From positions 57,625 to 121,624 of IMG/VR virus record IMGVR_UViG_2904560550_000001: a stretch of 64,000 nt of DNA, one strand, 5' to 3'. The position numbers were made by a program, and so were the translations under genes. The notes beneath the pieces were generated by a model. It saw only the letters and a list, made by a program, of their open reading frames with translations, was not told where the DNA came from and did not search any database. Shown piece by piece: positions 3,081 through 60,557 of the stretch (within the stretch, counting starts at the first letter, position 1; each line of letters starts with the position of its first letter). The stretch comes from a virus (Duplodnaviria; Caudoviricetes).

Positions 3081-3117
3081 ATAAAATCGTACTTTCATAG
3101 GGAAAAGAGGAAAAGAA

Positions 3118-3432
3118 ATGTTGCCAACTTCTTTAAAAGCAAAAGTTCAGCGAATTTTATTAAAAGGTAGCTTTAAAAAATCTGAGAGCTCTAAAAGCGG
3201 AGTAAAAGGACTAAGCAATATTTCTGCGGGTTTTACTTTTGCCAAGACGTTTGACGACGATTACTGCCTCTATTATACAGCTGGTAATATGGCCTTCCGG
3301 GGAATGCCCAACGAAGAAAAGGATAATCAAACAGAAAAAATGTATCAGTTCTTATTGGATCAGGGCCTTCAAAAAAACATTGAACTGATAGAGTTTAGAA
3401 ATCAAAAAGCAATTTTGTTGAAAGTGGAGTAA
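3118..3432 (+). CDS. Hypothetical phage protein
   Basis: ORF with RBS, flanked by junction palindromes. Confidence 0.7.
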   Translation: MLPTSLKAKVQRILLKGSFKKSESSKSGVKGLSNISAGFTFAKTFDDDYCLYYTAGNMAFRGMPNEEKDNQTEKMYQFLLDQGLQKNIELIEFRNQKAILLKVE

Positions 3433-3496
3433 TTTCGCAGCACTTTGAGAAACAGCATAAAATCATTCTTTTATAAAAATAGAAAGGGTTAAATTT

Positions 3497-4042
3497 ATGA
3501 ACTATAAAGGCAATATAAATACTGATTTCTTATTGGCATTAAATGAATGTATTAACTTTCTTCCAGATGATCACAACAACTTAAATTGGACTATTGTGTT
3601 TTATGATCTACAGAACTTCATTAAGGATCATAAAGATAATAAAGTGTATCCAATAGAACACTTTAATAAAATACTAGATATAAATTCACCTGCTTCAGGA
3701 TCTACAGTGAGTCAAATTAAACAAATCCATCTGTTCCTGTTTAAATATGAATTTAATCAAGGTGAATTAATTAAGTTAATCGGAAACATTTATCATGAAA
3801 TAAGACATGCATGGCAATACTCCAATAATATTTATGAAATTGAAAACGAAATCTCTCCTCACGAGGATTTTGAAGCTTATATTAAACAGCCTTGGGAATT
3901 AGATGCATATAAGTTTCAGTTGAAATATATGAGAGAACATTATAACAAGATCTTAGAAATTTTTAATCTGAAAGACTATGTTGTCCCTGTTTACAATTTT
4001 CACGAAAATATAATGAAATTAATTGACGAGGAAATAATCTAA
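3497..4042 (+). CDS. Zincin-like metallopeptidase domain protein
   Basis: HEIRH (HExxH) and downstream PWELDA. Confidence 0.7.
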   Translation: MNYKGNINTDFLLALNECINFLPDDHNNLNWTIVFYDLQNFIKDHKDNKVYPIEHFNKILDINSPASGSTVSQIKQIHLFLFKYEFNQGELIKLIGNIYHEIRHAWQYSNNIYEIENEISPHEDFEAYIKQPWELDAYKFQLKYMREHYNKILEIFNLKDYVVPVYNFHENIMKLIDEEII

Positions 4043-4060
4043 CTGAAAAAGAGCATTAAA

Positions 4061-4243
4061 CTAAATGCTCTTCTTCATACCACATCTACGACACTCACGT
4101 AAAAACACACCACTTTTCACTGAACTCTTGAATAAAGTGTAATCGCAGTTGTCACAGCGACCATATTTAACATCGGGATGCTCCTTATAATCATACACAA
4201 CTGTTACATCGTAGCCGTTAGTCTCTAAATCTTTCTCTTCCAT
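4061..4243 (-). CDS. Small zinc-ribbon protein
   Basis: CDNC...CRRC; AGGTG RBS. Confidence 0.7.
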   Translation of the reverse strand: MEEKDLETNGYDVTVVYDYKEHPDVKYGRCDNCDYTLFKSSVKSGVFLRECRRCGMKKSI

Positions 4244-4313
4244 TAAATTTCACCTACACAAAGTATTTAACACTACTATAATACCAGACGATGTATATAA
4301 GGAGGGTTTTAAT

Positions 4314-4565
4314 TTGATTGGAATAGCATATTTCTTAATACTCTGGCTGGGTGTTGGCTTTCTAACGGGATTTAAGGCCTTATTTGTTGATCAGGTTTAT
4401 GATGAAGAGTTTAAGCAGGAATTGATTGATTCATTTTCACCAGGTATGGAGCAGAATATGATTGAACTGTTCTTTAAGAATAAAATAAATATCATGGTGT
4501 TTTACATATTAATTGGATTGCTGCCACTGACCATAAAAATTGCTGGTCTGCTGAAGAGGCGTTAG
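4314..4565 (+). CDS. yopE: YopE-like membrane protein
   Basis: Two hydrophobic segments; recalled similarity and synteny. Confidence 0.75.
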   Translation: MIGIAYFLILWLGVGFLTGFKALFVDQVYDEEFKQELIDSFSPGMEQNMIELFFKNKINIMVFYILIGLLPLTIKIAGLLKRR

Positions 4566-4567
4566 CT

Positions 4568-4783
4568 ATGCCGGTTATCGATACCTTTTTTGTTATTCAA
4601 TTTGAAAATGATGATTACTTCAAGTCATTTAAATTAGATGGAAGTGGTTATAAGACATCTAAGGGGCTTCATGGAGCTTCTAAATTCACTACAATGTCAG
4701 AAGCTTTAGCGATCGCAAATGAGCTGCATACGGAGTTTAAAGCCACTTCTGCCATAAGACAAATTGAAGTTATTACTAGGTGA
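4568..4783 (+). CDS. yopF: YopF-like protein
   Basis: Recalled similarity and synteny. Confidence 0.7.
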   Translation: MPVIDTFFVIQFENDDYFKSFKLDGSGYKTSKGLHGASKFTTMSEALAIANELHTEFKATSAIRQIEVITR

Positions 4784-7531: not shown

Positions 7532-7597
7532 AAAATACGAATTTTAATCAGATAAGGATCCTTCAAAAAATAATTAGAATAAAAATAAAATAAATAC

Positions 7598-7626
7598 TTG
7601 TAATTCTGACAACTCTAATGTATATT
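7598..7626 (+). promoter_or_regulatory. aimR promoter
   Basis: TTGTAA-17bp-TATATT with extended TG, just downstream of a repeat copy. Confidence 0.65.
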
Positions 7627-7667
7627 ATAAACAAGGGAACATTAGTTGGGAAGGGGTGGAGTAACCA

Positions 7668-8807
7668 ATGAATCTTAAGCAGAAGATTAAGAATGAATGT
7701 GAAAAAGACAACCAGCTCGCAGCGAAACTCTCAAAAATAGCAGGGTACGAAAAGGTTAATGGTTTTTACAAATTCATCAACACCCCAGAGAAAGAAATGG
7801 ACAACTTAGGCGGTTTAATTAAGATTGTTAAAAACTTGTTTCCTGATAATGAAGAGCAGCTTCTAAGTGATTACTTCTTAACATTGGATCCCAACAAAAA
7901 ATGTGCTAGACAATCTGTTGAATACTCTGATATAAATCAATGGGATTCATTAACTGACAAGATTATTTTAAATTTAAGTAACTCAAAAAACACAACAAGT
8001 CAAGAATGGGGCAACATCTACAACATACATAGAAAGCTATATAAAAACCAAATCTCAATACCAGAAGCAATAAGAGAGTGTGGAAGATGTAAAGCTCCAG
8101 AAATGTCATTTTTCTCAGATGCAATGCTAATGTACAAATACTTGAATATTGGTGAGTTTGGATTGATGAAAAGCACTTTAACACTTTTAGATTTTAGAAG
8201 CTTGCCAGAAGGATTTATAAAGGATTCGTACAAAAGTAGAGTGTCAATGTTACAAGCGAATATAAGCTTAAATGAAAATAATTTAATCGAAGCAAGAAAA
8301 CATTCAAATATTGCAATAATGCAGTCCAATGTGAACCGAATATGTTTCTTTGCGCATCTGACAATAGGGAACACCCTAATTTTTGAAAACTATGAAGAAG
8401 CTATGCTAGCGTATGTTGAGGCAAAGAAGTATGTTCTTAATGATATTCATAAAGAAATGCTAAATGGTGCTCTTTGCTTCTTGGCTAACGTATGGAACAA
8501 GGAAAATTTATGGGTTAACTATGAATCGAATGATATCAAATATCAGCAGCTTAGGGCTTTTTATTACATAAAAAATAATAATCTCGACAAGGCAAACGAA
8601 TTATTGGAAAGCTTATCAAATAGGGATCAAGATGAAAATGAATTAGGATTTTATTTTTATTATAAAGGTTTGATATCAAAACAAAAATCTGATTTTTATA
8701 AATCAATAACATATTTCAAAAAATCAGATGATAAATATTTTATCCAATTGACAATAATGGAGCTCGAAAAATTAGGCTGTGATCCGGAGCTGCTAAATTT
8801 AATTTAG
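7668..8807 (+). CDS. aimR: Arbitrium receptor AimR (RRNPP family)
   Basis: 379 aa, N-terminal HTH plus TPR-like helices, followed by aimP and aimX. Confidence 0.95.
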   Translation: MNLKQKIKNECEKDNQLAAKLSKIAGYEKVNGFYKFINTPEKEMDNLGGLIKIVKNLFPDNEEQLLSDYFLTLDPNKKCARQSVEYSDINQWDSLTDKIILNLSNSKNTTSQEWGNIYNIHRKLYKNQISIPEAIRECGRCKAPEMSFFSDAMLMYKYLNIGEFGLMKSTLTLLDFRSLPEGFIKDSYKSRVSMLQANISLNENNLIEARKHSNIAIMQSNVNRICFFAHLTIGNTLIFENYEEAMLAYVEAKKYVLNDIHKEMLNGALCFLANVWNKENLWVNYESNDIKYQQLRAFYYIKNNNLDKANELLESLSNRDQDENELGFYFYYKGLISKQKSDFYKSITYFKKSDDKYFIQLTIMELEKLGCDPELLNLI

Positions 8808-8836
8808 AATTTAACACTTGAAAGGAGGTGAATTTA

Positions 8837-8968
8837 ATGAAGAAATTTATTTTCGGCACAGCCATTTTAGCAGCTTTAGCAATTTCATTCATTGCAGGTC
8901 AACATTCAGTTAATACGGCATCAGCTTCTGATGAGATCTCTGTAGCAAGTGCAATTCGGGGAGCTTAA
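8837..8968 (+). CDS. aimP: Arbitrium pro-peptide AimP, mature peptide SAIRGA
   Basis: AAAGGAGGTG RBS; MKKFIFGTAILAALAISFIAGQHSVNTASASDEISVASAIRGA. Confidence 0.97.
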   Translation: MKKFIFGTAILAALAISFIAGQHSVNTASASDEISVASAIRGA

Positions 8969-9000
8969 TACTACAACAGGATACTACATAATCAATGGTT

Positions 9001-9033
9001 AGACGTTTGATCCAGTGGATCAGGCGTCTTTTC
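9001..9033 (+). terminator. Terminator between aimP and aimX
   Basis: AGACGTTTGATCC-AGT-GGATCAGGCGTCT followed by a T tract. Confidence 0.85.
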
Positions 9034-9046
9034 TAATTTTAAGAGA

Positions 9047-9083
9047 ATGTTCCAGAAATTCATAATATAAAAAACAAGAACAT
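9047..9083. promoter_or_regulatory. AimR operator
   Basis: ATGTTC-25bp-GAACAT, the 6-bp inverted repeat with 25-bp spacer known for AimR sites. Confidence 0.85.
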
Positions 9084-9095
9084 GGGGGAATTAAA

Positions 9096-9251
9096 ATGAA
9101 AAAGCATTTCGGACAAGCACTTTCTTATGAGGATATGGCCAAAGGTTACGAAGAAATGGCAGCTATTAATCTTGTAATTTCCCAGGAAGACAATCATCTT
9201 GAAAATGAAGCAGAAATGGTTAGATCAAAATATAAAGCAAAGGTATCCTAA
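9096..9251 (+). CDS. aimX: AimX, 51 aa, mimic of the MazE C-terminus
   Basis: MKKHFGQALSYEDMAKGYEEMAAINLVISQEDNHLENEAEMVRSKYKAKVS. Confidence 0.92.
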   Translation: MKKHFGQALSYEDMAKGYEEMAAINLVISQEDNHLENEAEMVRSKYKAKVS

Positions 9252-9335
9252 TGAAGATTAAAGACAAATCAGCAGACATTTTAACACATACATAGGGGAT
9301 GTGTTATTTGTCGTGAATAAAAATAAAATAAATCA

Positions 9336-9364
9336 TTGCATATTATTATGGTAACATATATAAT
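9336..9364 (+). promoter_or_regulatory. sro operon promoter
   Basis: TTGCAT-17bp-TATAAT after a repeat copy. Confidence 0.75.
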
Positions 9365-9400
9365 GAAGTTACAAGATGAACGTTGTTGGGAGATGAAACA

Positions 9401-9613
9401 ATGGAAACTACCAGTGCCACTCAAAAAGAAGAGTTGAAGATTACATCATTAAGACAATATCAATACATAAAACAACTAAAGAACTTCACACGAGTCAATC
9501 TCCACCTAGAGGATCCAGATGTGTTTACACCTAATAATGTAACTACAATGAGAAAAAATCATAAAGAATATAACCTCATTAAAGAACAAAAGAATTCTAT
9601 AAAATGCATTTAA
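9401..9613 (+). CDS. First gene of sro operon (SroA position)
   Basis: GGGAG RBS; synteny. Confidence 0.65.
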   Translation: METTSATQKEELKITSLRQYQYIKQLKNFTRVNLHLEDPDVFTPNNVTTMRKNHKEYNLIKEQKNSIKCI

Positions 9614-9627
9614 GGAGTAAAATTAAA

Positions 9628-9858
9628 ATGAATAATAAATATTACACAGAAGAAAACAAGGCTAAAGTTTGGAAAAAGCATATGATCGTTTTAAAATTTC
9701 TAGAGCAGCCTGAGATAGCAGTTGCTTATAATGAGTTCTTACGAAGAGAAGCAACAAGTGATGAATGGGTTGGGTTCGAAGAGGAGCTTTATGAGGAATT
9801 GACGGGGATGCCAATTATAAACGTCTGTAAGGACGAGAGGGTAAATGTCCTAAACTGA
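9628..9858 (+). CDS. phi3T_93/SroB-like protein
   Basis: AAGGAG RBS; MNNKYYTEENKAKVWKKH recalled from phi3T; synteny. Confidence 0.65.
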   Translation: MNNKYYTEENKAKVWKKHMIVLKFLEQPEIAVAYNEFLRREATSDEWVGFEEELYEELTGMPIINVCKDERVNVLN

Positions 9859-9896
9859 ATTTTATTATAGGATAAAAATAAATTAGGTGTGATAAA

Positions 9897-10061
9897 ATGA
9901 ATACAGACATCTTAATTAACGCTCTTAAAGAATACGACATGTTAAAGCAAATGGAAATCTGTAACGCCAATATAATGCTGCTGAGTAATATTCAAGGTGA
10001 AAATGAATGGATTGTTGCGTGGAAAGAATTTGATCAATACTTAATGAAAAAAATGATATGA
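9897..10061 (+). CDS. 54-aa protein at the SroC position (not in ORF track)
   Basis: AGGTG RBS; MNTDILINALKEYDMLKQMEIC... Confidence 0.65.
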   Translation: MNTDILINALKEYDMLKQMEICNANIMLLSNIQGENEWIVAWKEFDQYLMKKMI

Positions 10062-10070
10062 GGTGTCATT

Positions 10071-11129
10071 ATGGAAGCTCAAAAGAAAGCGTCAACACTA
10101 AGGGATTATTCAATATTCAACAACATAAATAGGTGGTTTGATGAATTAGATTTAAGAAACAGGGATCAAAAAACTGGAGAAATTGAAAAGTCTAATACTA
10201 GAGCCACGTATGAAAGGCATATAAGAGAGTTTTTCAACCACTATGCTGCCAAGGATATTGAATATTTAACTGAGAGTGACCTGGCGATCAAGAAGAGTGA
10301 CCTGTATGATTATCGAAGCCATTTGGCTAAAAATAAAAGTAACTCCAATTCAACAATTAACAACAAGATTGCCGCACTGAAAAGTATGATTAAGTATCTT
10401 GAATCTGAACATGAGTGTGATGCATCTGTATTTAATTTTAGGCCTCTTCCAACAGAAAAGAACCCAGCAGGCTCTTTTGAAGGAATATCTGAAGCTGATG
10501 AATTTGCTGAGGCAGCGTATGTTACTGAGCGGCAGAACAGATTAATGAAAAAGATGTTTATTTTGTTTAGTGCACGCACTGGAGGGCGTAAATCAGAGGT
10601 GCTTAGAGTTGGGTGGGATGATATTACTTATTCAGAAAAGCATCAATGCTATCTCGTCAACTTTAAAAAAACCAAGCAAAAAAAGGCTAGACCAGTTGGA
10701 ATTTCCACAGCTTTTTATGAAGAGTTGTTGCTGTTAAAGCAAGAGTATGGGGAGCATGAACTGTTATTTCATAAGTTAACAGTTGATTCAATACAGGATA
10801 TGTGGAATCGCGTATGTAGAGTTATGGGCATTCCAAAAGAAAGAAAGATAACTCCGCATAGTTTACGCAATACTGCAACAAACTTTTCTTACAGCGTTAA
10901 TGGTGATATTAAAAAAGTTGCAGCGTTCTCTGGTCACAGCAATATCAATGTTTTGAATGATCATTATTTAAACAATGAAAGGGATTATTCTCAAGATCCA
11001 GGGGTTTTGGTTGATCAAAAAGAAGACATGTCCTTTTTAGATGATGTTACCTTAGAGCAATATAAAGAATTCTTTTTAAAATCAGACATGTATATACAGA
11101 GTAAACTTAAAATGTTTTTGAACAAGTGA
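10071..11129 (+). CDS. yopP: Tyrosine recombinase YopP/SroD
   Basis: SAM-like N-domain; TGGRKSE, KTK, HSLR, GH and HY catalytic motifs. Confidence 0.9.
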   Translation: MEAQKKASTLRDYSIFNNINRWFDELDLRNRDQKTGEIEKSNTRATYERHIREFFNHYAAKDIEYLTESDLAIKKSDLYDYRSHLAKNKSNSNSTINNKIAALKSMIKYLESEHECDASVFNFRPLPTEKNPAGSFEGISEADEFAEAAYVTERQNRLMKKMFILFSARTGGRKSEVLRVGWDDITYSEKHQCYLVNFKKTKQKKARPVGISTAFYEELLLLKQEYGEHELLFHKLTVDSIQDMWNRVCRVMGIPKERKITPHSLRNTATNFSYSVNGDIKKVAAFSGHSNINVLNDHYLNNERDYSQDPGVLVDQKEDMSFLDDVTLEQYKEFFLKSDMYIQSKLKMFLNK

Positions 11130-11205
11130 TACAAATAATCATATAAAAGCTTTACTTGCTTATGAAAATAATGATAAATTTAATATGATTATGTGAGGTG
11201 ATAAT

Positions 11206-12555: not shown

Positions 12556-12575
12556 AGCTTAAAGGAGAATTTAAT

Positions 12576-13559: not shown

Positions 13560-13577
13560 TCCCTGTTACAGGGATTA
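13557..13577 (+). terminator. Hairpin after yopR
   Basis: TAATCCCTG-TTA-CAGGGATTA. Confidence 0.7.
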
Positions 13578-14001: not shown

Positions 14002-14078
14002 CGGACAACCTCCTGTTATAGTATTGCTTATCATACTATATCAATTCTTTCCAAGTTTTTAAATGAAAGAAAAAAGAT

Positions 14079-14137: not shown

Positions 14138-14166
14138 GTTAATTACTACCAGAGAGAGGGAAACGT

Positions 14167-16711: not shown

Positions 16712-16838
16712 AAAGGGAGGGGAATAAATTGACGAAAAGTGAAGGATGAAAAGTGACTATTGAGCTGTCTCATAAAATTAATCGAACCAAATAAAAGATG
16801 CATTTCATATTAAATGAGAATAGGGGGAGTAGTTAATA

Positions 16839-17075
16839 ATGGAGACAAAACACGGATTAAGTCAAGGACGGTTAAATGCAGCGAAAGATTATACTCGGAG
16901 TTTTGTGGAAAGGATCAATAAAATTGAGTTGATGTATCAGCTTTCTGTAAACAAAATGGTGGATGGAGAAAAAGCTGAGAATTTTATTTCAGGAAATATT
17001 AAAGAAATCGAGCGTGATTGGGAATGCTTTAAGAGCTATATTGCACAAAGAGGCGATATGAGAGAATTAGATTAA
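16839..17075 (+). CDS. Hypothetical phage protein
   Basis: GGGGGAG RBS; flanked by palindromes. Confidence 0.75.
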   Translation: METKHGLSQGRLNAAKDYTRSFVERINKIELMYQLSVNKMVDGEKAENFISGNIKEIERDWECFKSYIAQRGDMRELD

Positions 17076-17108
17076 AAGTAAAATTTAAAAGAGAAAGGGA
17101 GTTTAAAT

Positions 17109-17705: not shown

Positions 17706-17784
17706 TAAAAAGACTGTTTTAAAGAAAGGATGAGAACCGATAGTCAATTTCAAAAAACTTAGTGATCCTGAATATATTAAGCAG

Positions 17785-18649: not shown

Positions 18650-18885
18650 GAATGCAAATCATTATTCGGATCAGATTTTAGCTGCAAAACATTAAAATAA
18701 AAGGATTATTTCATTGTAAGGAGGAAGGCACATAGGTTATTTAAAGCACATAATTGATACAGCCTGGTTTAACTTAGTTTGGTTTAGATGGCATCTTGGA
18801 GCGGACATAAGCGTATTTGACGGCTGCGGATGGTATACATATAAATATTTAAAGAGTAAAAATAAAATAAATGGAGGTTATAAGG

Positions 18886-19401: not shown

Positions 19402-19525
19402 TTATATCAACTCCATTAACATTTTATACATTAATTATGAGGTAAATGGAAGATGCTTCGGAAGTGAATAATGGATCATAAATAGTTAAAATCGTGATTT
19501 TAAACAGAATAGGAGGCCTTGATAC

Positions 19526-19930
19526 ATGGGCTTATATGTAACACACGGAGCATTCGATGGGGCATACTCGTCATTCAATAATCTTAGAAGATTTTTATTA
19601 AAATCAATTGGAGGTAGTTGGCCACCTCATGATAACCAAAAATTTAAGGACGGCTATTGGTACTTTGGTAAAGGCTATTCAACAATAACCCATAAGGGAC
19701 TAACAGAGTTTTTCGGTCATTCAGATTGTGATGGTGTAATTACACCTGGAATGTGTAAAGTTGTTGCTGATGAATTGGAAGCCATTTTGCCACAAGTAGA
19801 GGAATTAGCTAAATCAGAACCATCATATGGTCATATATTGCGTGATGGCGGATGGGTAGCGGTTACAAAGCAGTTTATTGAAGGATGTAGACTGGCACAT
19901 GAAAGAAATGAACCATTAGAGTTTAGATAA
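19526..19930 (+). CDS. Hypothetical phage protein (HSDCDG motif)
   Basis: AGGAGG RBS; flanked by palindromes. Confidence 0.8.
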   Translation: MGLYVTHGAFDGAYSSFNNLRRFLLKSIGGSWPPHDNQKFKDGYWYFGKGYSTITHKGLTEFFGHSDCDGVITPGMCKVVADELEAILPQVEELAKSEPSYGHILRDGGWVAVTKQFIEGCRLAHERNEPLEFR

Positions 19931-19962
19931 AATCTTGTTTTTAAACAGATAGGAGGAAACGG

Positions 19963-20478
19963 ATGAATCAAGATATTCAGTTTTTAAAAGAGCTTCAGCA
20001 AGAGTTGAAAGATCAAGACAACGACTGTCAAGCTGCACCACGTTTCTGGACAGTTGGTGATTATGAATGGGTCGAAGCTCGAGAGGAAAATGCAGAACGG
20101 TATTCTGTATACCTACCATATATTGCTGAAGCATATGTTTTAGATGATTATTTAGAAGATTTAAAAGAAAGTAGTGAGCTCTCTAAGGAAGCTTTAACAG
20201 AGCTGAAAAAGGACGACTTTGACGATCCTATTGAGTGGATTCAAAAATACATTGATGAAGAAGCAGAATTAATTCCAGAAAGAAAGGTTCACATTGTACG
20301 ACCGGATACAATGTTTTTGACCAAAGAAGAAGCGAAGAGACACATCAAATTGAATAAGCATCATTACACTTCTGAAGCACATACTTACGCAATGACAGCT
20401 TGGAGAGCACCGAAAGTTGAGCGGTTGCTTAACATACTTGAATCCTTTGATTGGAAATCAATAGAGACTTCTAAATAA
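19963..20478 (+). CDS. Hypothetical phage protein
   Basis: AGGAGG RBS; flanked by palindromes. Confidence 0.8.
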   Translation: MNQDIQFLKELQQELKDQDNDCQAAPRFWTVGDYEWVEAREENAERYSVYLPYIAEAYVLDDYLEDLKESSELSKEALTELKKDDFDDPIEWIQKYIDEEAELIPERKVHIVRPDTMFLTKEEAKRHIKLNKHHYTSEAHTYAMTAWRAPKVERLLNILESFDWKSIETSK

Positions 20479-20800
20479 AAGATAGTTATTATTCAAATAC
20501 TCAAGGCAGAGCCTACCGCACCTACAATGCCAGCAAAATCAACTAGTGTTGTTACGTTGCTCATAAAGTCAAAAGAATTGTTTATTAAAAACATAAAATC
20601 AGCCCCTGTAAAAAAATTTAATACTAAGATAAAAAATAATAAGAAGGAGTATTTTATCGCTGGCTTGTTTTTGGTGTAGGAGCAGCCTTGAATATTCGAA
20701 TGTATTACTAATATAGCATAATTTTTACAAATAATCCAATTCTGTCTTACGATCGGAGAGTAAAAATAAAATAGTTATTTTATAGAAGGAGAGGGTGTAG

Positions 20801-21279: not shown

Positions 21280-22091
21280 TTATACTCTCCAGGATACGAA
21301 GGAAGGTATGCGGAGTTTGCCATGCTTAGTCTTAAATCTGTGCTTAACCTTACATAAGATAGGTTCGATAAATACATATTCATCAGATTCAGACTTTACA
21401 TGTTTCATAGAGTGCAACTTACTTCGTTCCGCGTTCGGCATGAATTCCATAAATCCAGCTGCAGTTCCATCAGGATAAGACAGAAGGAATTTAATATCCT
21501 TCTTCGTGTAGCCGGTTATGAGAACTTCAGTGTAATCATAATTAATCACTTTAAGCCAATTATGCGAACGTTTATTGATCTCATAAGGGGAGTTAGCTTT
21601 CTTGATTACGATTCCCTCTAAATTCTTTTCTTTGGCCAGGTTGAAGTAAGCAAGACCGTTACCTTGAATTCCTTCGATAACACAAACATTTGGATGTTCA
21701 GTTCAAGTGAGTTCAGAACTGTCTTACGCTCAGTGAGCGGCTTAGCTGCTATTGACTGACCGTCTTTGTAAATAACATCAAAGACACAGTAAACGATCTT
21801 ATGGGCTGATTTTTTGGACATGAAACGTTCCATTACAGCTTCAAAGTCAGGAGCACCGCCCGGGGCAGCTACAATAACTTCACCATCGAGTACTGTTCCA
21901 TCTGGGATATCTAAATCCAGGAGTTCAGGAAACTTGCTTGTTACTTCATTATTGTGACGAGTATATAGCTTAATCTGATTATCAAATTTAGAAAGGATCA
22001 GTCTGATTCCATCAAATTTGAGCTCAGTGATATAGTTCTCGTCGTCAAAAGGCTCTTTGATTGAATGCAAAAGCATTGGCGATAAAAACAA
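21280..22091 (-). pseudogene. ligB: ATP-dependent DNA ligase (LigB/YoqV), frameshifted near 21698
   Basis: ELKFDGIR, LDGE and FDV motifs; EGIVIK and WLK motifs lie in the other frame. Confidence 0.85.
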
Positions 22092-22160: not shown

Positions 22161-22835
22161 TTAATGGGATTGAATGAGCTCAGGTGAATTGTTTTTAGGT
22201 GAATTCACTAAAGATGAAACCTGGTATGCTTCCATGTCATCAGCATCATAAGGCTGCAGTAAGCTTTGTAGATAATCAGGATCAGTATTTTTAGGGTTGA
22301 GCCATTCCTTTTCGTTCTCATCAGTAAGGATAACTGGCATCCGATCATGAATGCCTTCCATAAGCTCATTAGGCTTTGTTGTGATGATTGTGCAAGTGTA
22401 CAAAGGATTGCCTTGTGGTGTGTTCCACTTTTCATATAATCCGGCAAAAGCAAAGAGATTGGATGATTTAAGCTTAATCCGCATAGGAATCTTAGTCTTT
22501 GGATCAAGGCGTTTCCATTCATAAAAACTGTCAGCTGGGATGATACAACGTTTGCTTACGAGTGGCTTTCGAAAGCTGGGTTTCTCGGCCAATGTTTCAG
22601 CACGAGCATTAATCATTTTATAGCCGATCTTTTCGTCTTTAGCCCATGGAGGGATAAGACCCCATCTAAGTTTGCCCAGACGGTTATTAGATCCATCGTT
22701 GATGATTGTCAGGATGTTTTGTGAAGGAGCGACATTATAGCTAGGGTGATACTCACCTTCAGGTAAGAATTGATCTATGTTGAATTGCTCAATAATGTCA
22801 TCAAACTCAGAAAATAAAGTGAACCTGCCACACAT
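22161..22835 (-). CDS. yoqW: SRAP/HMCES abasic-site protein (YoqW)
   Basis: MCGRF N-terminus, INARAET, FYEW, HDRMP. Confidence 0.95.
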   Translation of the reverse strand: MCGRFTLFSEFDDIIEQFNIDQFLPEGEYHPSYNVAPSQNILTIINDGSNNRLGKLRWGLIPPWAKDEKIGYKMINARAETLAEKPSFRKPLVSKRCIIPADSFYEWKRLDPKTKIPMRIKLKSSNLFAFAGLYEKWNTPQGNPLYTCTIITTKPNELMEGIHDRMPVILTDENEKEWLNPKNTDPDYLQSLLQPYDADDMEAYQVSSLVNSPKNNSPELIQSH

Positions 22836-22905
22836 GTTCATCATCCTTTAGGGTTTTTGAATATTGTACAGGCTTGATACACGAAAATCAAAAAGGAGGA
22901 ATGTG

Positions 22906-23127: not shown

Positions 23128-23183
23128 ACAGAAATCTAGATAAAACAGAGATTTTATAAAAATAAAATTAAAAAAGGGGAATT

Positions 23184-25323: not shown

Positions 25324-25585
25324 ATTGGACAAAGATTACATGGTAAATGAATTGGGACTGCCGGAATCCTCAATTTTAGAAGAAATCGCTGACACGTCTA
25401 GGTGGAGCATTCACTATAGAATTGTGTTCTCATATCAGGGTCGCTTTTTTGAAACTTTCTATAGCAAAGTCGCAACTGAAAACCAGTATGAAAGCCCTTG
25501 GGAATTTGAAGATCAAGTGGATTGTTATGAAGTGGAGTTAAAAGAAGTGAAGGTTAGAAAATGGATAAGAAAAGAATCTCAATAA
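25313..25585 (+). CDS. Hypothetical phage protein
   Basis: Overlaps the gad1 end; RBS. Confidence 0.75.
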   Translation: MKIKLDKDYMVNELGLPESSILEEIADTSRWSIHYRIVFSYQGRFFETFYSKVATENQYESPWEFEDQVDCYEVELKEVKVRKWIRKESQ

Positions 25586-25618
25586 AAACGATATTTTACA
25601 GAAAGAGGAGGAGTGAAA

Positions 25619-25762: not shown

Positions 25763-25875
25763 CTTGTATGTCTAAATAAAATCAATTTTTTATTTAAGGG
25801 GGTGATAACAATGTGAGTTACCTATGTGATTTGAGTTTTAAGAATAAAACAAAAATAAAAAGGAGTGGTTATTAA

Positions 25876-28439: not shown

Positions 28440-28462
28440 ATAAAATTGTAGTTTTAACAAGA

Positions 28463-38854: not shown

Positions 38855-39576
38855 TATGCATCGTCATTAAGAGTAAAAATAAAATAAAAACACACATTTT
38901 CAAGTCCGTTTATGGTATGATGATTTTAATTCCTTTAACCACTTTTTCTTACATAAGTTATGAGCAACATTTACATAAAACAGAGGGAAATGAAGACTCA
39001 ATAAAAGAATCATTTTATAAGAAGCCTAGACAGATTAGGATCCCATCAAGTGAGAATATTGTCTTAGGGCTTTTTAAAAAAGCCCTAACGAACAAAGAAC
39101 AACAATTAAAAAGGCATACAGAGAAGATTATCTCAGCAAAACTCATTAAACCTAAGCAAAGTAAGAAAAGGCACATGAGAGGAGGTGAGAAGGCAAAGTA
39201 TAGAGTTTTTAAGAGTAAAAATAAAATATATAAACACAAAAAAGAAAACGAGGCACCAGCCGCAAAGAAAACCATCCAGGTTAAGCTGAGTGCTTATATT
39301 GCCCACTGCCAAGAAGGATGCACAGGAACAACTAGAACAGGTGTTGATGTTACTCAATCAATCTATTACAAAGGGTATCGTGTTATTGCAACCGATCCAA
39401 GTGTCATTCCCTTGAATTCAATTGTTGAAATAAGCATTGGTGGGGAAACGTTCAAAGCAATTGCAATTGATACTGGTGGCGCAATCGTTGGAAATAAAGT
39501 GGACTTGCTCGTAGCAACCGAGCACGACGCAATTAATTTTGGTAAGCAAAGTGGGACAATTTCAATTATTAGTTAG
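38851..39576 (+). CDS. 3D-domain protein (YorM-like)
   Basis: IATDPSVIPL, DTGGAI, VDLL; N-terminal transmembrane segment. Confidence 0.85.
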   Translation: MICIVIKSKNKIKTHIFKSVYGMMILIPLTTFSYISYEQHLHKTEGNEDSIKESFYKKPRQIRIPSSENIVLGLFKKALTNKEQQLKRHTEKIISAKLIKPKQSKKRHMRGGEKAKYRVFKSKNKIYKHKKENEAPAAKKTIQVKLSAYIAHCQEGCTGTTRTGVDVTQSIYYKGYRVIATDPSVIPLNSIVEISIGGETFKAIAIDTGGAIVGNKVDLLVATEHDAINFGKQSGTISIIS

Positions 39577-40834: not shown

Positions 40835-40963
40835 AAGAATTACCTCCTAGGTTTTGATTGTAAGTACAACCCTAGTCTAACATGTAAAAAATTTGAAATG
40901 TGTGAAGTGTTTGTGAAACCGATTAAAATATCTCTTTTAAAGAGTAAAAATAAAATATAAGAG

Positions 40964-43091: not shown

Positions 43092-43137
43092 GAGTAAAAA
43101 TAAAATATTCCTTTTATCGAGAATGGAGAGATGCTAA

Positions 43138-43665: not shown

Positions 43666-44136
43666 ATGCAAACCTTAAATGCACCGATTTATGAAGTTAA
43701 ACAGGAGAGCGACTGGTATAAAGCAGAGAAGAAACGAAAAGAGGGCATTAACAACTTCTTCGACAAGTTTGAAGAAAAGTATGGCGTCGAGGAAGGTTTC
43801 TCGTTTTATCACTCTGAATATTTCGGAGTCTATGAAGGAACTGAAGCGTATGAAGTATTTAAAAATGACATTGTTAAAAATCCAAAAGACGGTTTTTACG
43901 CTTTCAAAAAACGATCTAAGCATTTTAACGAGATAAAATCTATGATTGAGAAAATTGAAAAGGTAAGTCCTTTCAAGTCTCATGATGAACTTGGTTTAAA
44001 TAACATGACTGGTCGTCAGTGGATAGACGACAGGTGGTTCTTTGGAGTTAAAAGTGAACAATTTGTCAAAGGAGACAATGTGGTTGCTATTGACTATAAG
44101 GATTATCTAAAAATTGTAATGGAGCATTTAGATTAA
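43666..44136 (+). CDS. Hypothetical phage protein
   Basis: G-rich RBS. Confidence 0.75.
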   Translation: MQTLNAPIYEVKQESDWYKAEKKRKEGINNFFDKFEEKYGVEEGFSFYHSEYFGVYEGTEAYEVFKNDIVKNPKDGFYAFKKRSKHFNEIKSMIEKIEKVSPFKSHDELGLNNMTGRQWIDDRWFFGVKSEQFVKGDNVVAIDYKDYLKIVMEHLD

Positions 44137-44174
44137 AATTCAATTTTTAAAGAGACTTATAAGGAGGCGAATAA

Positions 44175-45158: not shown

Positions 45159-45196
45159 ATAAAAGGATGATTTTAAAGAGATAAGGGGAGTGAGAA

Positions 45197-45965: not shown

Positions 45966-45999
45966 ATAAAATCACAGTTTCATAGGAAGGGGAAGTAAA

Positions 46000-51273: not shown

Positions 51274-51516
51274 ATGAGATTAATTAAATTAGAGCAACCG
51301 AATTGTAATCCCTGCAAAATGGTATCTAATTATTTAAATGAAGTAGGAGTTAAATATGAGACAGTTGATGTTACACAAAAGCCAGAAGTAGCAGCGCAAT
51401 TTGAAGTAATGGGTGTACCGGTGACTATCTTGCTTAATGAGCAAGGAGAGGAAGTAAAACGAAGTATTGGCTTTAAGTCGAATGAACTTGATGAGTTGTT
51501 AAAGGAATTACGATAA
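51274..51516 (+). CDS. Thioredoxin/NrdH-like redoxin (YosR-like)
   Basis: CNPC motif; GVPV. Confidence 0.9.
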   Translation: MRLIKLEQPNCNPCKMVSNYLNEVGVKYETVDVTQKPEVAAQFEVMGVPVTILLNEQGEEVKRSIGFKSNELDELLKELR

Positions 51517-51545
51517 AAGGGTAATTTATTAAAGGAGGGCTGACC

Positions 51546-51722: not shown

Positions 51723-51761
51723 CAGATGTTTTACATAAAAAACTAAAGGAGTTAATACATT

Positions 51762-52190: not shown

Positions 52191-52478
52191 TACAAGCCCT
52201 GGCTTAGATGATGATGTTTGTCCAGTGGAGGGTCTTAGCCAGGGTACAACTTAAAATACTCAAAAAATTCAACAATTATACCTACAAAGGAGATGCTGGA
52301 TGAAAAAAAGATTACGTAAAAAGGCGTGGATGACAGGGAATACAAAACATGGCGAATTCATGTTTAATGTAATTGATAAGGTAAATGCAGATGGATATGT
52401 GTATTATCCAAAAGGACGCTATCATGTAGACAGAAAAGGGAACATGTACAAGTTTAAAATTTAGAAAAAAGCGAAATT

Positions 52479-52787
52479 GTGATGACTGAAGTTTATAAAG
52501 AACTTAGGGATACCAAAGGGTGTCGATTGAACGAACATCTCTATAAAAGAAGACTTTTATCTAAAACAATAAGGAGGAAAAAGATCATAAACAATAACAG
52601 TCGTAAAGATTTACAAACAAAGTATGATGACATGCTCTTCAGAAACGGACTTTGTTTGGGATTTATTCAAAAACATGGGCTTGAAGATAAGTTCTTAGGG
52701 CATATGAAACAAGTTGCAGCTTATGAAGAAGACCAAAGGTATAGAGTTGCAGCAGTTAATTTTTTGAGTTTATTAGAATCAAACTAA
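52479..52787 (+). CDS. Hypothetical protein (start probably near 52587)
   Basis: Internal AAGGAGG at 52571. Confidence 0.55.
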   Translation: MMTEVYKELRDTKGCRLNEHLYKRRLLSKTIRRKKIINNNSRKDLQTKYDDMLFRNGLCLGFIQKHGLEDKFLGHMKQVAAYEEDQRYRVAAVNFLSLLESN

Positions 52788-55735: not shown

Positions 55736-56062
55736 TTGCAACAAAAGGAGCAAGAATTGTTGTCAAAGAAAGAACAGCTTGAAATTGATGTTTTAGAAAA
55801 GGAAGCAGCTTTACTCCGGCTAGAAGTGGAACAAGAAGATTTCAATCTCCACAAAATTGGGGAGATCGGAGTACTTAAAGATTTTCTTTTATACATAAAG
55901 AAATACAGATCAATGTTTACTGTGCAGCAAGCAGAAGAGTTTAGAAATATGGATGGCCGGATAAAAGAAATTGTTAAAGTCCATGATGAACAAGTTATGG
56001 TTGATGAAGAAGCTTTAGAGGGATTTATTGAAGAAATTGAGAATCAAATTAAATTAATATAA
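55736..56062 (+). CDS. Coiled-coil phage protein (YosW-like)
   Basis: AAGGAGGTG RBS. Confidence 0.7.
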   Translation: MQQKEQELLSKKEQLEIDVLEKEAALLRLEVEQEDFNLHKIGEIGVLKDFLLYIKKYRSMFTVQQAEEFRNMDGRIKEIVKVHDEQVMVDEEALEGFIEEIENQIKLI

Positions 56063-56826: not shown

Positions 56827-57055
56827 GTGACGCATCATAGACGCTTAAAAACAACGGTGTTTAAAAAGTATAGCGGGTACGATTGGACTTGCGATGGAAT
56901 GTTTGAAACACCAAAAGTTAAAGGAAGCGATAAAAGAAAGAGATCCAAACACGAACGAGCAATTCGAAAAGCGATGGATAAAAAAGATATTAGTTATTAC
57001 GACTAAATTAATATGAAATCTGTATTTTAATTAAATTTGAAAAGAAGGCGAATAT

Positions 57056-57648: not shown

Positions 57649-58479
57649 ATGAAAATCGATTATGTTTCAGATCTGCATATTAACCACTGGATTCCTTGGA
57701 ATAATAATCAAATCAAGTGGGAAAAGCGAACAAGGGAGATTATTAGAAGGTTAATATCGAATGGAAATGGAGAGGTATTAACCATTGCCGGTGACTTTAC
57801 TGAGTGGAATCAGCAAACACTGTGGGTACTGGATGAAGTAGCAAAGCAATATGAAAAGGTTTATTTCACATATGGCAATCATGATCTTTATTTACTCAGC
57901 AAAAATCAGCAACGAAAATACTCAGATTCATTGGGAAGGTTAAATGATCTAATTCAAAAGGCTACAGATATCAAGAATGTCACTCCATTGATAAAGTCAA
58001 CGGATACATACAAAGGGAAAGTCTTTGCAGGAGATGTTATGTGGTATCTTCCTAAAGGAAATGAAGGGTGGGATTTCTTCAAAGGAGTCTCAAATGATTC
58101 AAACTATATCAGCCTTAATGGATACAGCAAAGAAGATGCGGTAAGAGCAATGTGGAAAGAATCAATGGACTGGTATGATACCCTTCAAAACACTCACATT
58201 GATGTATTTGTTTCGCATGTCCCTCCTGTACACAATCCATATTCACCATTTGAGCCTAACAGCTGCTATATGGTCGATTTGCCATTCATTAATGCTGAAC
58301 ATTGGGTTTGTGGACACGACCATTTACAAGCCGAGTTTGATAAAGAAGGAACGAGCTTTCACATGAACTGCATTGGGTATCCGTATGACTACGATATGTA
58401 TCCAAGAGTAAATGAGATACCTGGTAATAAAGTTGACACGTATAAAACGTTTGAGCTAAAGACATTTGAGATCAAATGA
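57649..58479 (+). CDS. Metallophosphoesterase (YotB-like)
   Basis: SDLH, AGD, GNHD, SHVPP, GHDH. Confidence 0.9.
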
Positions 58480-58509
58480 AATTCTAATTTTATACAGTGA
58501 GGGATACGA

Positions 58510-58704
58510 ATGATAAAGTTTAGCGGTAAATCGGTTGGTTTTGGTAGTGAAGACAATCTTGAAATTATGGGTGACTGTAAGAAAGATAGTATTACTATTA
58601 GTCATGAAACGGATGGAGTAGGTGGATTAACAACGATTTACGTAAATGGCAACTATATCTGCGTAGATACAAACTCTTTAAAATGTGAAGCAGTTAATGA
58701 ATAA
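58510..58704 (+). CDS. Hypothetical phage protein
   Basis: GAGGG RBS; flanked by a 14-bp direct repeat. Confidence 0.65.
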   Translation: MIKFSGKSVGFGSEDNLEIMGDCKKDSITISHETDGVGGLTTIYVNGNYICVDTNSLKCEAVNE

Positions 58705-59111
58705 AAGTTGATTCTTCTAATTTTATACGGAAGAGAGGGATTGCTATTGTGATTGGAAAAGCACTATACAATAATTCATGGTTTGAAGTTGCAAATATCA
58801 ACTTTGACTCAGGGCATATCATAATTAAAAACGAAAGTGAAAACTCGTTGGGTTTGAGAATAGGTGAAACACTGACACTTGACCTTGACTACGTCGATGA
58901 TGTAAAAATTGGACTTTTGCTGTGAATGCATAAAATGTTGATTTCATTTAGAAGGGATAAACCTCAATGAAAGAAATTGAATTTGAAGAAATTAAGCAAT
59001 TCGTTGAAGTAATGTCTCGGCAAGCTGGATCGACCAAGGTGATGAAAATTCACATTAGTTATGCAGAATGGTTGGTCGCTGAAGTCGAACGCTTAAGGGG
59101 GGTAACCATTC

Positions 59112-59504
59112 ATGGATAATGGAGGCACAAAGGTAAATATTCATTTTAATAACGGTTCTCTAATTGAGGGTTTCAAAGTGTTTAGTGAACTAACCGAATC
59201 TTCGACTGTATATGAAAAAATAATGAATCATCCGGAAAGCAAAAAGGTAGCGTTAATTAAGTTTGGCTTTGGGCAATTGTCACCAATTAAAGTTGAAAAA
59301 TGGTTTAAGTCATATAATCCGCCCAAATACTACGAATTTAGAAAAGCAGCAAACAACAATAAAGTTACTGACTTACATACTCAAGCAATGACAAAGGAAC
59401 AACGGACACGCCTATTAAATCTTGAAGAGGTCTTTAATGACGAAAAGTCTAGAAAGGCATTATTAAATTTAGCTGAACAAAACACCAAGAGAAATAGGGA
59501 TTGA
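59112..59504 (+). CDS. Hypothetical phage protein
   Basis: G-rich RBS. Confidence 0.65.
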   Translation: MDNGGTKVNIHFNNGSLIEGFKVFSELTESSTVYEKIMNHPESKKVALIKFGFGQLSPIKVEKWFKSYNPPKYYEFRKAANNNKVTDLHTQAMTKEQRTRLLNLEEVFNDEKSRKALLNLAEQNTKRNRD

Positions 59505-59543
59505 CTAACTGTTAATGAAAAACATGATTCTTGGAGGGATTAA

Positions 59544-59975
59544 ATGAACAATGAAAACTCTACAAAATGGTTTGATATAGACTTCAAGACTAAAACAGAC
59601 AATAACATTGATAGAGCTCTATTGCGATTATTTGATCTCATGAAGAAGAGTCTCCACATTTATTTCAATATTAAAAACTCTTCTGATATTCATGAGTTTT
59701 TAAAAATCGCAGCAGCAAAAAACAATGTCGATCATTCTTTTATTGAATGGATTAGGGAAAAGGGCATCCAAAGATTAAAGAAAATTGATTTTGGAAATTT
59801 ACCAAGCAATGATCAATTTCTTGCAATGATTGAGTTCGATGAATACTGTCTTAAATGTGAGATGGATTTTAAAGAACCAGAAGAGGTAAGGAGCTGTATC
59901 ATCACGATTATTAATAGTATTCAAGAATATATTAATATCTGCAACCAGTTAATTAAAGGAGGGCGAGTGATCTGA
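59544..59975 (+). CDS. Hypothetical phage protein
   Basis: GGAGG RBS. Confidence 0.7.
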   Translation: MNNENSTKWFDIDFKTKTDNNIDRALLRLFDLMKKSLHIYFNIKNSSDIHEFLKIAAAKNNVDHSFIEWIREKGIQRLKKIDFGNLPSNDQFLAMIEFDEYCLKCEMDFKEPEEVRSCIITIINSIQEYINICNQLIKGGRVI

Positions 59976-60142
59976 TTGTTACTGCATGGGTTTTATTAGT
60001 TGTATTTGGGCTTGTGTTATTAGCAAACATGGATTCCCAAGAGGATATTAAATTTGCAGTCTATATTGGTGTAATTAAATTTATTTCAGTTTTCATTGTT
60101 GCCATTGCAGCAGGAGTGATTTGGGGAGGGTTATTTCAATGA
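59972..60142 (+). CDS. YotH-like small membrane protein, CTG start
   Basis: (M)IVTAWVLL...AGVIWGGLFQ; GGAGG upstream. Confidence 0.55.
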   Translation: MIVTAWVLLVVFGLVLLANMDSQEDIKFAVYIGVIKFISVFIVAIAAGVIWGGLFQ

Positions 60143-60303
60143 TAAAGAGGATTATGAGTTTTAAGTCTGACGACTGGAGACATATTTTTTTCTTATTAAA
60201 GAGTGCGGCGAAGAATTTTTTTAAAGGTGATTTTCATGAAGCAAACGATGCGCTTTATTGGATACGGATACACTTGTCTTTTGAATCAAATAAAGTGAAG
60301 TGA
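60139..60303 (+). CDS. Hypothetical protein
   Basis: GGAGG RBS; ATGA overlap. Confidence 0.55.
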   Translation: MIKRIMSFKSDDWRHIFFLLKSAAKNFFKGDFHEANDALYWIRIHLSFESNKVK

Positions 60304-60557
60304 ACATTAGATAAAATCGGTCTTTTAATGAAAGGCATGAAGGGAGGAAGCGGTCATGTCATTAGTTAAGAAATGGGACAAGATTAGAGTAACAAAGGAA
60401 GCACAAGGTCATTGGGCCACATTATCTACCCTGTTGGAAGCGAATGGGTAGTCAAAAAGGTAATTACACCTGACACAGGAACGGTTTTTTGCAAAGGGAA
60501 TGATTATGGAATACCACAGACACATTATAAGGTTATTTAGGATAAAAATAAAATGAG

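Follow-up and report, generated by a model that had tools for sequence, protein, structure and literature searches.

A spacer-addressed dyad at the gene junctions of SPbeta-type phages, possibly a protein-binding site that doubles as a linker between gene modules

A provirus record of the SPbeta type (IMGVR_UViG_2904560550_000001; 121,624 bp) has, in its final 64 kb and mainly between genes, many copies of a 16-bp dyad, TRAAA-N6-TTTYA. This stretch is called the window below, and coordinates refer to it unless the whole phage is named. The dyad is specific to the SPbeta phage family. Its 6-bp spacers, each peculiar to one locus, form an ordered family-wide scaffold of addresses around the variable genes, and its arms act as independent half-sites in double-stranded DNA. 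We suggest, tentatively, that the dyad is read by a protein and also serves as a short-homology linker at which unrelated gene modules are exchanged.

Sequences and definitions

A strict site is an exact 16-bp match to TRAAA-N6-TTTYA. A decayed site has one right arm altered, with an address that is still recognisable, the address being the locus-specific 6-bp spacer. Genes were modelled by our own heuristic, which requires an open reading frame (ORF) and a ribosome-binding site (RBS). The phage was compared, all against all, with six reference relatives (SPBc2, SPbetaL6, SPbetaL2, Goe11, Goe14 and phi3T), and breakpoints were defined as the ends of BLAST high-scoring segment pairs. The seven genomes are akin to each other and to the IMG/VR contigs that were also used, so the counts given below are not counts of independent events.

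Enrichment and family specificity

The window contains 27 exact matches to the motif, among them all eight examples quoted in a preliminary description of this DNA. Dinucleotide shuffles gave an expectation of 2.74 (standard deviation 1.68, largest 9), and none of 100 shuffles reached 27. When the spacer length k was varied from 0 to 15, 27 matches were found at k = 6 and between 1 and 8 at each other value, compared with approximately 3.5 per k expected from third-order Markov simulations (n = 200). The preliminary description had predicted this peak against a Markov background, and had also stated that spacer length is fixed and that every spacer differs; all of the 27 window spacers are indeed distinct. 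The whole phage has 36 sites. In a second-order null restricted to its intergenic DNA, 32 sites were observed against 1.45 ± 1.2 expected (largest 6 in 300 simulations), and other values of k gave 0–4 in the same test.

SPBc2 has 36 sites at N6 against 0–10 at other spacings, and the five other relatives have 34–48 dyads each, against 2–6 for a reversed-pattern control. There was no peak at k = 6 in 1.21 Mb of chromosomal DNA of equal GC content from other Bacillaceae (67 matches at k = 6, 65 at k = 7). The three nulls and this control rule out chance or A/T composition as the origin of the dyads, in keeping with the earlier view that chance would explain only a few of the matches, and the enrichment is real. 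Host sites such as the ComK motif A4N5T4 and the CodY box were also considered; the sharp preference for N6 and the lack of a Bacillaceae peak argue against a general host site, with the B. subtilis chromosome itself not sampled in bulk.

Weaker symmetry is found beyond the core, giving TCT-nn-A-TAAAA-(t....a)-TTTTA-T-nn-AGA, an 11-6-11 dyad of about 28 bp. The strong information is confined to the inner 5 bp of each arm, the outer arm positions being weakly conserved, and the centres of the half-sites TRAAA and TTTYA are 11 bp apart. Inverted arms around a spacer of fixed length, with a peak at 6 bp only, have the geometry of a tyrosine-recombinase core site, as had been pointed out before.

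Position at gene junctions

The heuristic gene model puts 25 of the window's 27 sites at gene junctions, which agrees with the 23 or more claimed earlier, and two (39002 and 55780) are within coding sequence. In the whole phage, the 18% of the sequence that is non-coding holds 33 of the 36 sites. On both strands the layout is a stop codon, 0–10 nt, the 16-bp site, approximately 18–29 nt, and a start codon. Of 151 non-redundant sites that could be oriented, 99 have a sequence resembling a Shine–Dalgarno (SD) element 3–20 nt downstream, whereas 13 have one on the mirror side; the start codon is mostly 17–25 nt past the site. Many junctions are compact, with gap lengths of 30–41 nt, and the dyad fills the gap between the stop codon and the next RBS. 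The preliminary description was therefore right that an RBS soon follows the right arm and that units consisting of an RBS and an ORF are bracketed by sites.

Two of its more detailed claims stand in part. The left arm was said often to be the upstream stop codon. This is true of the sites at 19928, 25583, 44134 and 58477 and of the decayed sites at 17073 and 20476, but over the whole phage it applies to only four of the 36 strict sites, with a stop codon 1–2 nt upstream in five more. Near matches had also been listed. Those at 17073, 20476 and 51514 are decayed sites, intact at the syntenic places in relatives, but as a class the one-mismatch matches in junction DNA have no peak at k = 6 (10, against 7–29 at other k).

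Three long stretches of the window have no strict site: 7547–15109 (the aimR/sro region), 28457–39001 and 45983–52543. The sro genes were identified within the first of these, and the earlier statement that the sro region has no sites holds for strict matches. In the late region, dyads also occur among the minus-strand structural genes, at whole-phage positions 4000, 20378, 22635, 25668 and 31473. The last two are approximately 21–23 nt upstream of a start codon, which is the same geometry as elsewhere. Its range thus goes beyond the early accessory region.

DNA half-sites or an RNA element

The dyads always lie in a transcribed intercistronic leader, and they are A/U-rich. Together with the short distances to the SD and the start codon, this would suit an element acting in the polycistronic mRNA, such as a small hairpin, a processing site or a translational enhancer in front of the SD. 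The variation between sites argues otherwise. No covariation was found between symmetric variable position pairs. Arms that deviate do so alone: on the sense strand, 13 A.C and 8 G.U combinations were counted and 2 compensated G-C pairs (p = 0.38), so that A.C mismatches are more frequent than G.U. When eight sites were folded, the hairpin by itself contributed −0.1 to −1.4 kcal/mol and was the fold of minimum energy at four of them; one site reaches −4.4 kcal/mol, but only with an added outer stem, and the two folds with z ≤ −1.9 rely on pairings other than the dyad hairpin. No Rfam family reached its gathering score in the 64-kb window. Of 24 RNA runs considered, all in the form of assembled contigs, none contained more than 0.12 of the words sampled. 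In addition, half-sites that are inverted complements would not be equivalent for a protein that binds single-stranded RNA. An RNA hairpin is ruled out by the lack of covariation, the excess of A.C mismatches, the weak folds and the lack of an Rfam match, and an RNA-level element of any of these kinds is very unlikely. The independent variation of inverted half-sites would fit a symmetric dimer that reads double-stranded DNA.

Spacers and the exchange of flanking genes

In the comparison of the seven genomes, the ends of homology blocks accumulate at the edges of sites: blocks that end at a site do so at +15 to +24 from its start, and those that begin at one do so at −10 to +4. At codirectional junctions with gaps of 28–150 nt, a breakpoint was found in 69 of the 116 that have a dyad and in 102 of the 286 that do not (odds ratio 2.65, from non-independent counts). 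Blocks start at dyads more often than they end there (90 against 45), which indicates that a site more often moves together with the gene downstream of it.

When one flank of a site is exchanged, the spacer nearly always stays the same. Among 77 pairs that share the upstream flank and differ downstream, 72 keep it; among 79 that share the downstream flank and differ upstream, 77 do. In all, 149 of 156 such pairs have the same spacer and seven have different ones. Between genomes there are 490 pairs of sites with identical spacers, against approximately 39 under a column-shuffled null. In 158 of the 490, representing 32 distinct 16-mers, neither 120-bp flank is homologous in a gapped alignment. 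The shared island around the site has a median length of 20 bp and a maximum of 34 bp, and extends past the core by 1.7 bp on the left and 4.0 bp on the right, compared with 0.9 and 0.8 bp for a consensus-only control.

The circular order of shared addresses, of which each genome pair has between 11 and 34, is identical in all 21 pairs. The order is also kept in SPbeta-like contigs from IMG/VR, where the distances between neighbouring addresses vary (for example 739–2386 bp and 328–3366 bp). The address gatgca was studied in 34 SPbeta-like loci from public viral contigs. It joins 14 upstream classes and 16 downstream classes in 24 combinations, which include a four-gamete quartet that was checked at the sequence level. 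The preservation of the spacer when a flank is swapped, together with the many classes joined at one address, implies that crossovers have taken place within a site of about 20 bp, in register. They are confined to the island of about 20 bp that holds the site, which is the limit of resolution.

Where the flanks are 80–95% identical (29 non-independent pairs), the spacer bases are identical at 174 of 174 positions, against 77–94% in the adjoining 8+8 nt, which is suggestive of spacers being more conserved than the bases next to them. No genome has the same spacer twice, where about six duplicates would be expected under independent draws; among related genomes this counts for little.

Simple indels behave differently from what the preliminary description had proposed. 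It expected gene gain and loss to break at the motif. The pile-up of homology breakpoints at site edges goes some way to meet this, but among 65 non-redundant simple indels there is none with a site at both ends, either strict or with one arm mismatch allowed. Depending on the criterion, between 43 and 52 of the 65 touch no dyad at all. The rest have their breaks in the left or the right arm, or on a single side, with no fixed position. Homology blocks that run from dyad to dyad are not enriched (14 observed against 9.8 expected, p = 0.14), and cassette exchange from dyad to dyad is rejected on this count.

In laboratory hybrids of phi3Ts and SPbeta, crossovers lie in identical blocks of 1.4, 3.3, 4.9 and 18.2 kb, and one further crossover lies in 39 bp that contain no dyad. 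Each hybrid has just 1–4 changes of parent, despite the 24 addresses common to phi3T and SPbeta. The identical parental blocks begin or end right at dyads, as with a 1,404-bp block between gatcaa and tttgtc. The crossovers in long identical blocks indicate that homologous recombination dominates where long homology is available, and that the dyads are not hyperactive hotspots there.

Proposed mechanism and alternatives

Our preferred reading, which we hold tentatively and with less than even confidence, is that the dyad is an intercistronic site read by a protein, and doubles as a short-homology linker between unrelated modules. A symmetric dimeric protein, probably encoded by the phage, would bind the arms and serve the expression of the downstream gene. 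The site, at 16–25 bp, is often the only sequence that two unrelated modules have in common, and general or annealase-type homologous recombination between co-resident relatives may therefore cross over inside it. The crossover would be in register since only sites with the same address share enough identity. Such a linker would let modules consisting of an RBS and an ORF be swapped without breaking either neighbour. The laboratory hybrids, which arose by homologous recombination, in one case within 39 bp, are in favour of this. The annotation of SPBc2 includes a Sak4-like annealase, a RecJ-like exonuclease and a Holliday-junction resolvase, and annealases are described in published abstracts as recombining short and diverged DNA. 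We infer the recombination pathway, as we do the standing of exchange as a selected function or a by-product.

Several points weigh against this reading. Only 205 of 1,230 unique breakpoints are located at dyads, 670 of 866 intergenic breakpoints are away from any dyad, and only 149 of 623 homology blocks have a dyad at an end. None of the crossovers in the laboratory hybrids can be assigned to a dyad. An island of 20 bp is at the low end for homologous recombination, which in any case does not by itself explain the shared arms or the extra conservation of the spacers. No binding protein was identified, and a Pfam scan of eight conserved proteins gave no DNA-binding domain. The relatedness of the seven genomes means that the p-values overstate the evidence, and the junction calls depend on the heuristic gene models.

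One alternative is site-specific recombination that needs matched spacers, as at lox, carried out on about 40 ordered sites in register by a tyrosine recombinase, which would bind the 11-bp arms and exchange strands across the 6-bp spacer. A single mechanism would then cover the arms, the 6-bp spacing, the conserved address spacers, the collinearity and the absence of indels between addresses. The 11-6-11 dyad has the same geometry as the Xer/dif core, and the lack of duplicate spacers within a genome points weakly in the same direction. The candidate enzyme is SroD/YopP, which is present in all six genomes checked, has an Xer-like layout, keeps the catalytic residues in its phi3T-type allele, and has no function stated in those parts of the SPbeta-phage literature that were available. 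We consider this alternative doubtful. Strong information is limited to 5 bp per arm; SroD is 32% identical between types, though the arms are invariant; and the SPbeta-type allele has lysine for the second catalytic arginine and a last histidine that does not align cleanly. The few switches of the hybrids within long identical blocks, the scattered indel breakpoints and the lack of enrichment of dyad-to-dyad blocks also speak against it, and a recombinase would not require the polar placement beside the RBS. A fuller version, in which about 40 Xer-like 11-6-11 sites and a phage tyrosine recombinase (SroD/YopP being the candidate) make up a natural multi-site system addressed by its spacers, with exchange at the same address between co-resident relatives reassorting anti-defence and other accessory genes, is unlikely; it would be the natural counterpart of cassette exchange between heterospecific lox sites. 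If instead the dyad were purely a regulatory operator, for example for a second repressor or a roadblock before lytic genes, with breakpoints shaped by selection alone, then the DNA-type half-sites, the family specificity, the fixed position beside the RBS and the twofold excess of sites that travel with the downstream gene would all be accounted for. Compact junctions with gaps of 30–41 nt would force any breakpoint to the edge of the site, and SroE has been described, in the text available, as a second repressor with no known target. Selection alone leaves unexplained the 158 pairs with identical spacers between unrelated flanks and the near absence of different or hybrid spacers at swapped junctions (7 of 156), and it would take repeated crossovers within the site to produce the four-gamete quartet and the 24 combinations found at a single 16-mer. 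A purely regulatory role is unlikely.

The preliminary description had suggested an integron-like model, in which mobile promoterless cassettes of an RBS and an ORF are inserted, excised or shuffled at any site by a Tn916-like recombinase for which spacers need not match. In its favour, some single genes have a site on either side, the phage has a gene for a tyrosine recombinase, and one insert is flanked by the addresses cagaga and acgata where SPBc2 has acgata only. Almost everything else is against it. The spacers behave in the opposite way, with only 7 of 156 one-flank-swapped junctions differing; addresses are never out of order in the 21 genome pairs or the IMG/VR contigs; and none of the 65 simple indels is bounded by two sites. 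Most intergenic breakpoints are away from dyads, and the laboratory hybrids crossed over in long identical blocks. Nor is there an array beside an integrase, since the sole PF00589 gene belongs to the sro operon while the sites are dispersed along the entire 121.6 kb, and in place of a long imperfect repeat of the attC kind there is a 16-bp core, 28 bp at most, with no stable fold. The integron model is largely refuted, and of the explanations considered here it is the least probable, being extremely unlikely.

Relation to known phage repeats

SPbeta-type phages have other dispersed repeats, and the dyad was compared with them. Identity with SPBRE, the operator of the SPbeta master repressor MrpR/YopR (SroF), is ruled out because the SPBRE sequence, as read from SPBc2, differs from the dyad. 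The available text of Kohm et al. (2023; PMC10516654) names ten MrpR-bound genes for SPBRE, and the upstream regions of these ten genes in SPBc2 share approximately ACAAATACAAAwAATATGTATA, not the dyad. SroF is reported to bind about 24 nt as a monomer, with one motif in phi3T and another in SPbeta. The dyad, by contrast, does not change with the type of SroF repressor. The two elements are alike in being dispersed intergenic repeats of one phage family, and the reader of SPBRE has a tyrosine-recombinase fold (PMC10516654, in part). SPBRE differs in having approximately ten bound sites, located at promoters, bound by a monomer and specific to the repressor type, whereas the dyad has 34–48 copies and is independent of type. 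A YonO promoter is also ruled out: the dyads are mostly in the early region, and YonO has one late-operon start, reported in the text available as a single site upstream of yonK.

A third repeat, found on the sense strand, reads approximately ttTTwAGAR-TAAAAATAAAATA. It has 29 copies in this phage, 23 in phi3T and 3–7 in SPbeta-type genomes, and is often just upstream of sigma-A-like −35/−10 pairs or of an RBS. SroD, SroE and SroF of this phage are 76–78% identical to those of phi3T, and 32–39% identical to the SPbeta type. Because its copy number tracks the allelic type of SroF, the third repeat is probably the phi3T-type SroF operator, the counterpart of SPBRE. It overlaps or abuts dyads at 15104/15110, 20761/20767, 43095/43101, 54/75 and 40924/40945. 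The core TAAAAATAAA of the third repeat starts in the window at the following positions:

75, 7580, 9318, 13598, 14814, 18857, 23157, 24405, 30040, 30478, 38874, 39216, 40945, 42834, 46703, 53384, 55191, 55280, 60543

The deposited annotation of SPBc2 marks stem-loops and two other palindromes, not the dyad. These palindromes, at 27856–27871 (16 bp, upstream of yopM) and 32394–32411 (18 bp, downstream of yopR) of SPBc2, are unrelated to the dyad; the one downstream of yopR was also among the short identity islands that we found. No description of the dyad was found in the SPbeta-phage literature searched, as the preliminary description had supposed; the search did not cover Lazarevic et al. 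(1999), Brady et al. (2023) or supplements, which may hold motif lists or binding data.

Sites in the window

The dyads of the window are listed here by address, with the relatives (of the six compared) that share them.

54..69, dyad ggtcaa, with a third-repeat copy after it, located upstream of a gene on the minus strand; address not in the six relatives
3082..3097, dyad tcgtac, right arm TTTCA; address also in Goe11 and phi3T
3458..3473, dyad tcattc; not in the six relatives, found in IMG/VR loci L081 and L098
7531..7546, dyad tacgaa, upstream of ORF 7668–8807 and of a third-repeat copy; found in IMG/VR loci L045, L081 and L098
15110..15125, dyad tgtaag; in all six relatives, in the same order; in IMG/VR contigs it usually precedes gatgca (18 of 31)
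16792..16807, dyad gatgca, right arm TTTCA here; the TTTTA form is the address studied in 34 loci
17073..17088, decayed site gtaaaa, right arm TTTAA, left arm forming the stop of ORF 16839–17075; intact in relatives
17706..17721, dyad agactg; in all six relatives
18698..18713, dyad ggatta, right arm TTTCA; shared with SPbetaL6 and SPbetaL2
19487..19502, dyad tcgtga; in SPbetaL6 and SPbetaL2, both flanks non-homologous to those of the SPbetaL6 copy
19928..19943, dyad tcttgt, left arm forming the stop of ORF 19526–19930; shared with SPbetaL2
20476..20491, decayed site gatagt, right arm TATTA, left arm forming the stop of ORF 19963–20478; intact in relatives
20767..20782, dyad tagtta, left arm overlapping a third-repeat copy; shared with SPbetaL2
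23141..23156, dyad cagaga, preceding an insert of about 1.2 kb that is absent from SPBc2; in SPbetaL6, decayed (TTTAT) in Goe11 and Goe14
25583..25598, dyad acgata, left arm forming the stop of ORF 25313–25585; in SPBc2, SPbetaL6, Goe11 and Goe14
25777..25792, dyad tcaatt; not in the six relatives
28441..28456, dyad ttgtag; not in the six relatives
39002..39017, motif match within an ORF by the heuristic gene model; status uncertain
40924..40939, dyad tatctc, with a third-repeat copy and an RBS directly after it; shared with phi3T
43101..43116, dyad tattcc, left arm overlapping a third-repeat copy; in all six relatives
44134..44149, dyad ttcaat, left arm forming the stop of ORF 43657–44136; in all six relatives
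45160..45175, dyad ggatga; in five of the six relatives
45967..45982, dyad tcacag, right arm TTTCA; in SPbetaL6, neither flank homologous
51514..51529, decayed site gggtaa, right arm TTTAT, a 217–234-bp insertion starting in the right arm; intact in relatives
52544..52559, dyad gaagac; not in the six relatives
55780..55795, motif match within an ORF, with no RBS after it; probably a chance match
57014..57029, dyad tctgta, left arm TGAAA; in five of the six relatives
58477..58492, dyad ttctaa, left arm TGAAA, forming the stop of ORF 57649–58479; in all six relatives
58931..58946, dyad tgttga, right arm TTTCA; in SPbetaL6, SPbetaL2 and Goe14
60312..60327, dyad tcggtc; in all six relatives

The ORF at 7668–8807 is in what we take to be the aimR position, by synteny with SPBc2.

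Comparison with other linkers and recombination sites

The PeSL (promoter-early stem-loop) elements of T4-type phages are composites of a sigma-70 promoter and a terminator hairpin, about 100 bp long, whose copies recombine with each other to give indels and mini-circles, according to the accessible text of Arbiol et al. (2010; PMC2839356). PeSLs, as described there, resemble the dyads in being short conserved intergenic repeats among small accessory genes, proposed to target recombination to harmless intergenic places. The differences are considerable. The dyad has a core of 16 bp (28 bp at most) and no stable hairpin, and there is no room for a promoter since the SD follows within 3–20 nt. 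Each dyad copy has its own spacer and exchanges in register, and none of the 65 indels lies between copies. The dyad therefore has neither the composite of promoter and stem-loop nor the inter-copy indels that characterise PeSL. A further paper, by Comeau and colleagues in 2014 (PMC4122927), reportedly also deals with PeSL cassettes.

Lambdoid phages have short conserved boundary sequences at module junctions, which have been proposed as sites of homologous exchange. These linkers are not known to have a common dyad consensus, in contrast to the symmetric arms and fixed 6-bp spacing that all the dyads share. Arms and spacing common to every linker imply a sequence-specific reader. PeSL and the lambdoid linkers, both of them conserved intergenic sequences that guide the exchange of modules, are the systems nearest to the dyads. 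What distinguishes the dyads from both is the 16-bp core, the common dyad consensus, the locus-specific spacer and the strictly in-register exchange.

Among recombinase sites, there is a likeness to heterospecific lox and FRT sites as used in cassette exchange, where partners need the same spacer; loxP is moreover a crossover hotspot of phage P1. The inverted arms, the short asymmetric spacer and the pairing of equal spacers that preserves order and orientation fit what is seen at the dyads. The lox arms are 13 bp long, against 5 strong bp in the dyad, and the laboratory hybrids have no preference for dyads. The Xer/dif core has 11-bp arms and a 6-bp central region, so that the 28-bp 11-6-11 geometry is the same, and SroD has an Xer-like layout; the dyads differ in occurring dozens of times per genome, with varied centres and weakly conserved outer arms. 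Integrons are cassette arrays beside an intI gene, with attI and a Pc promoter. Their attC sites are imperfect inverted repeats of 57–141 bp, with R''-L''/L'-R' boxes, that are recombined as folded single strands. The likeness here is in the promoterless co-oriented ORFs between palindromic sites and in the presence of a gene of the tyrosine-recombinase family; integron cassettes move and change order, which is not seen for the dyads. By analogy, the set of dyads may be said to work like a set of heterospecific recombination sites.

The dyad is a family-wide element with 34–48 copies per genome, separate from the known repressor operators, and its ordered addresses provide a coordinate system for the variable gene slots of SPbeta phages. 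It offers a testable explanation of how small accessory genes are swapped without harm to their neighbours. SPbeta is a classic and tractable model phage, and its relatives, whose annotations include Gad1 and Gad2, are a main source of the anti-defence genes discovered recently. If a dedicated enzyme were responsible, the dyads would represent a novel form of programmed recombination and supply a toolkit of orthogonal sites. Otherwise, they would still be a clear example from nature of phage mosaicism guided by short linkers, and would point to a DNA-binding factor in a well-studied phage.

Candidate proteins

The candidate reader or enzyme with a recombinase fold is the following:

10071..11129, plus strand, SroD/YopP-type Xer-like tyrosine recombinase, the sole PF00589 match in the phage

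SroD consists of a SAM-like N-terminal domain followed by the catalytic domain. Compared by eye with the consensus, the phi3T-type allele has the canonical R, K, HxxR, H and Y. In the SPbeta-type allele the second arginine is replaced by lysine and the last histidine is not cleanly aligned, and the tyrosine is invariant across these alleles of 32% identity. A search of PDB sequences gave no match to SroD at E = 0.001. YonN, which is HU-like by the SPBc2 annotation and 77–97% conserved, SroD and SroE remain as candidate readers of the dyad.

The protein at the SroE/YopQ position (11206–12555, plus strand) matches the Pfam family DndB (PF14072) at 60 bits.

Other observations

The most conserved window proteins across the six relatives are encoded amid the most variable region:

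21618..22091 and 22161..22844, both minus strand, a pair of conserved genes

One of the pair has an ATP-dependent DNA ligase domain (86–95% identical). The other (97–98% identical) occupies the place of yoqW, for which the SPBc2 annotation gives an SOS-response-associated peptidase.

In SPBc2, bnrdE and bnrdF are annotated as containing introns; the window has no match to a group I intron model of Rfam. One of the public loci, L165, is from a contig titled Streptomyces sp. NPDC058103. It is an SPbeta-like segment with seven dyads that have the usual addresses, and its homologue of the protein encoded at 22161–22844 is 94% identical. This locus is probably a contamination or a mislabelled assembly.

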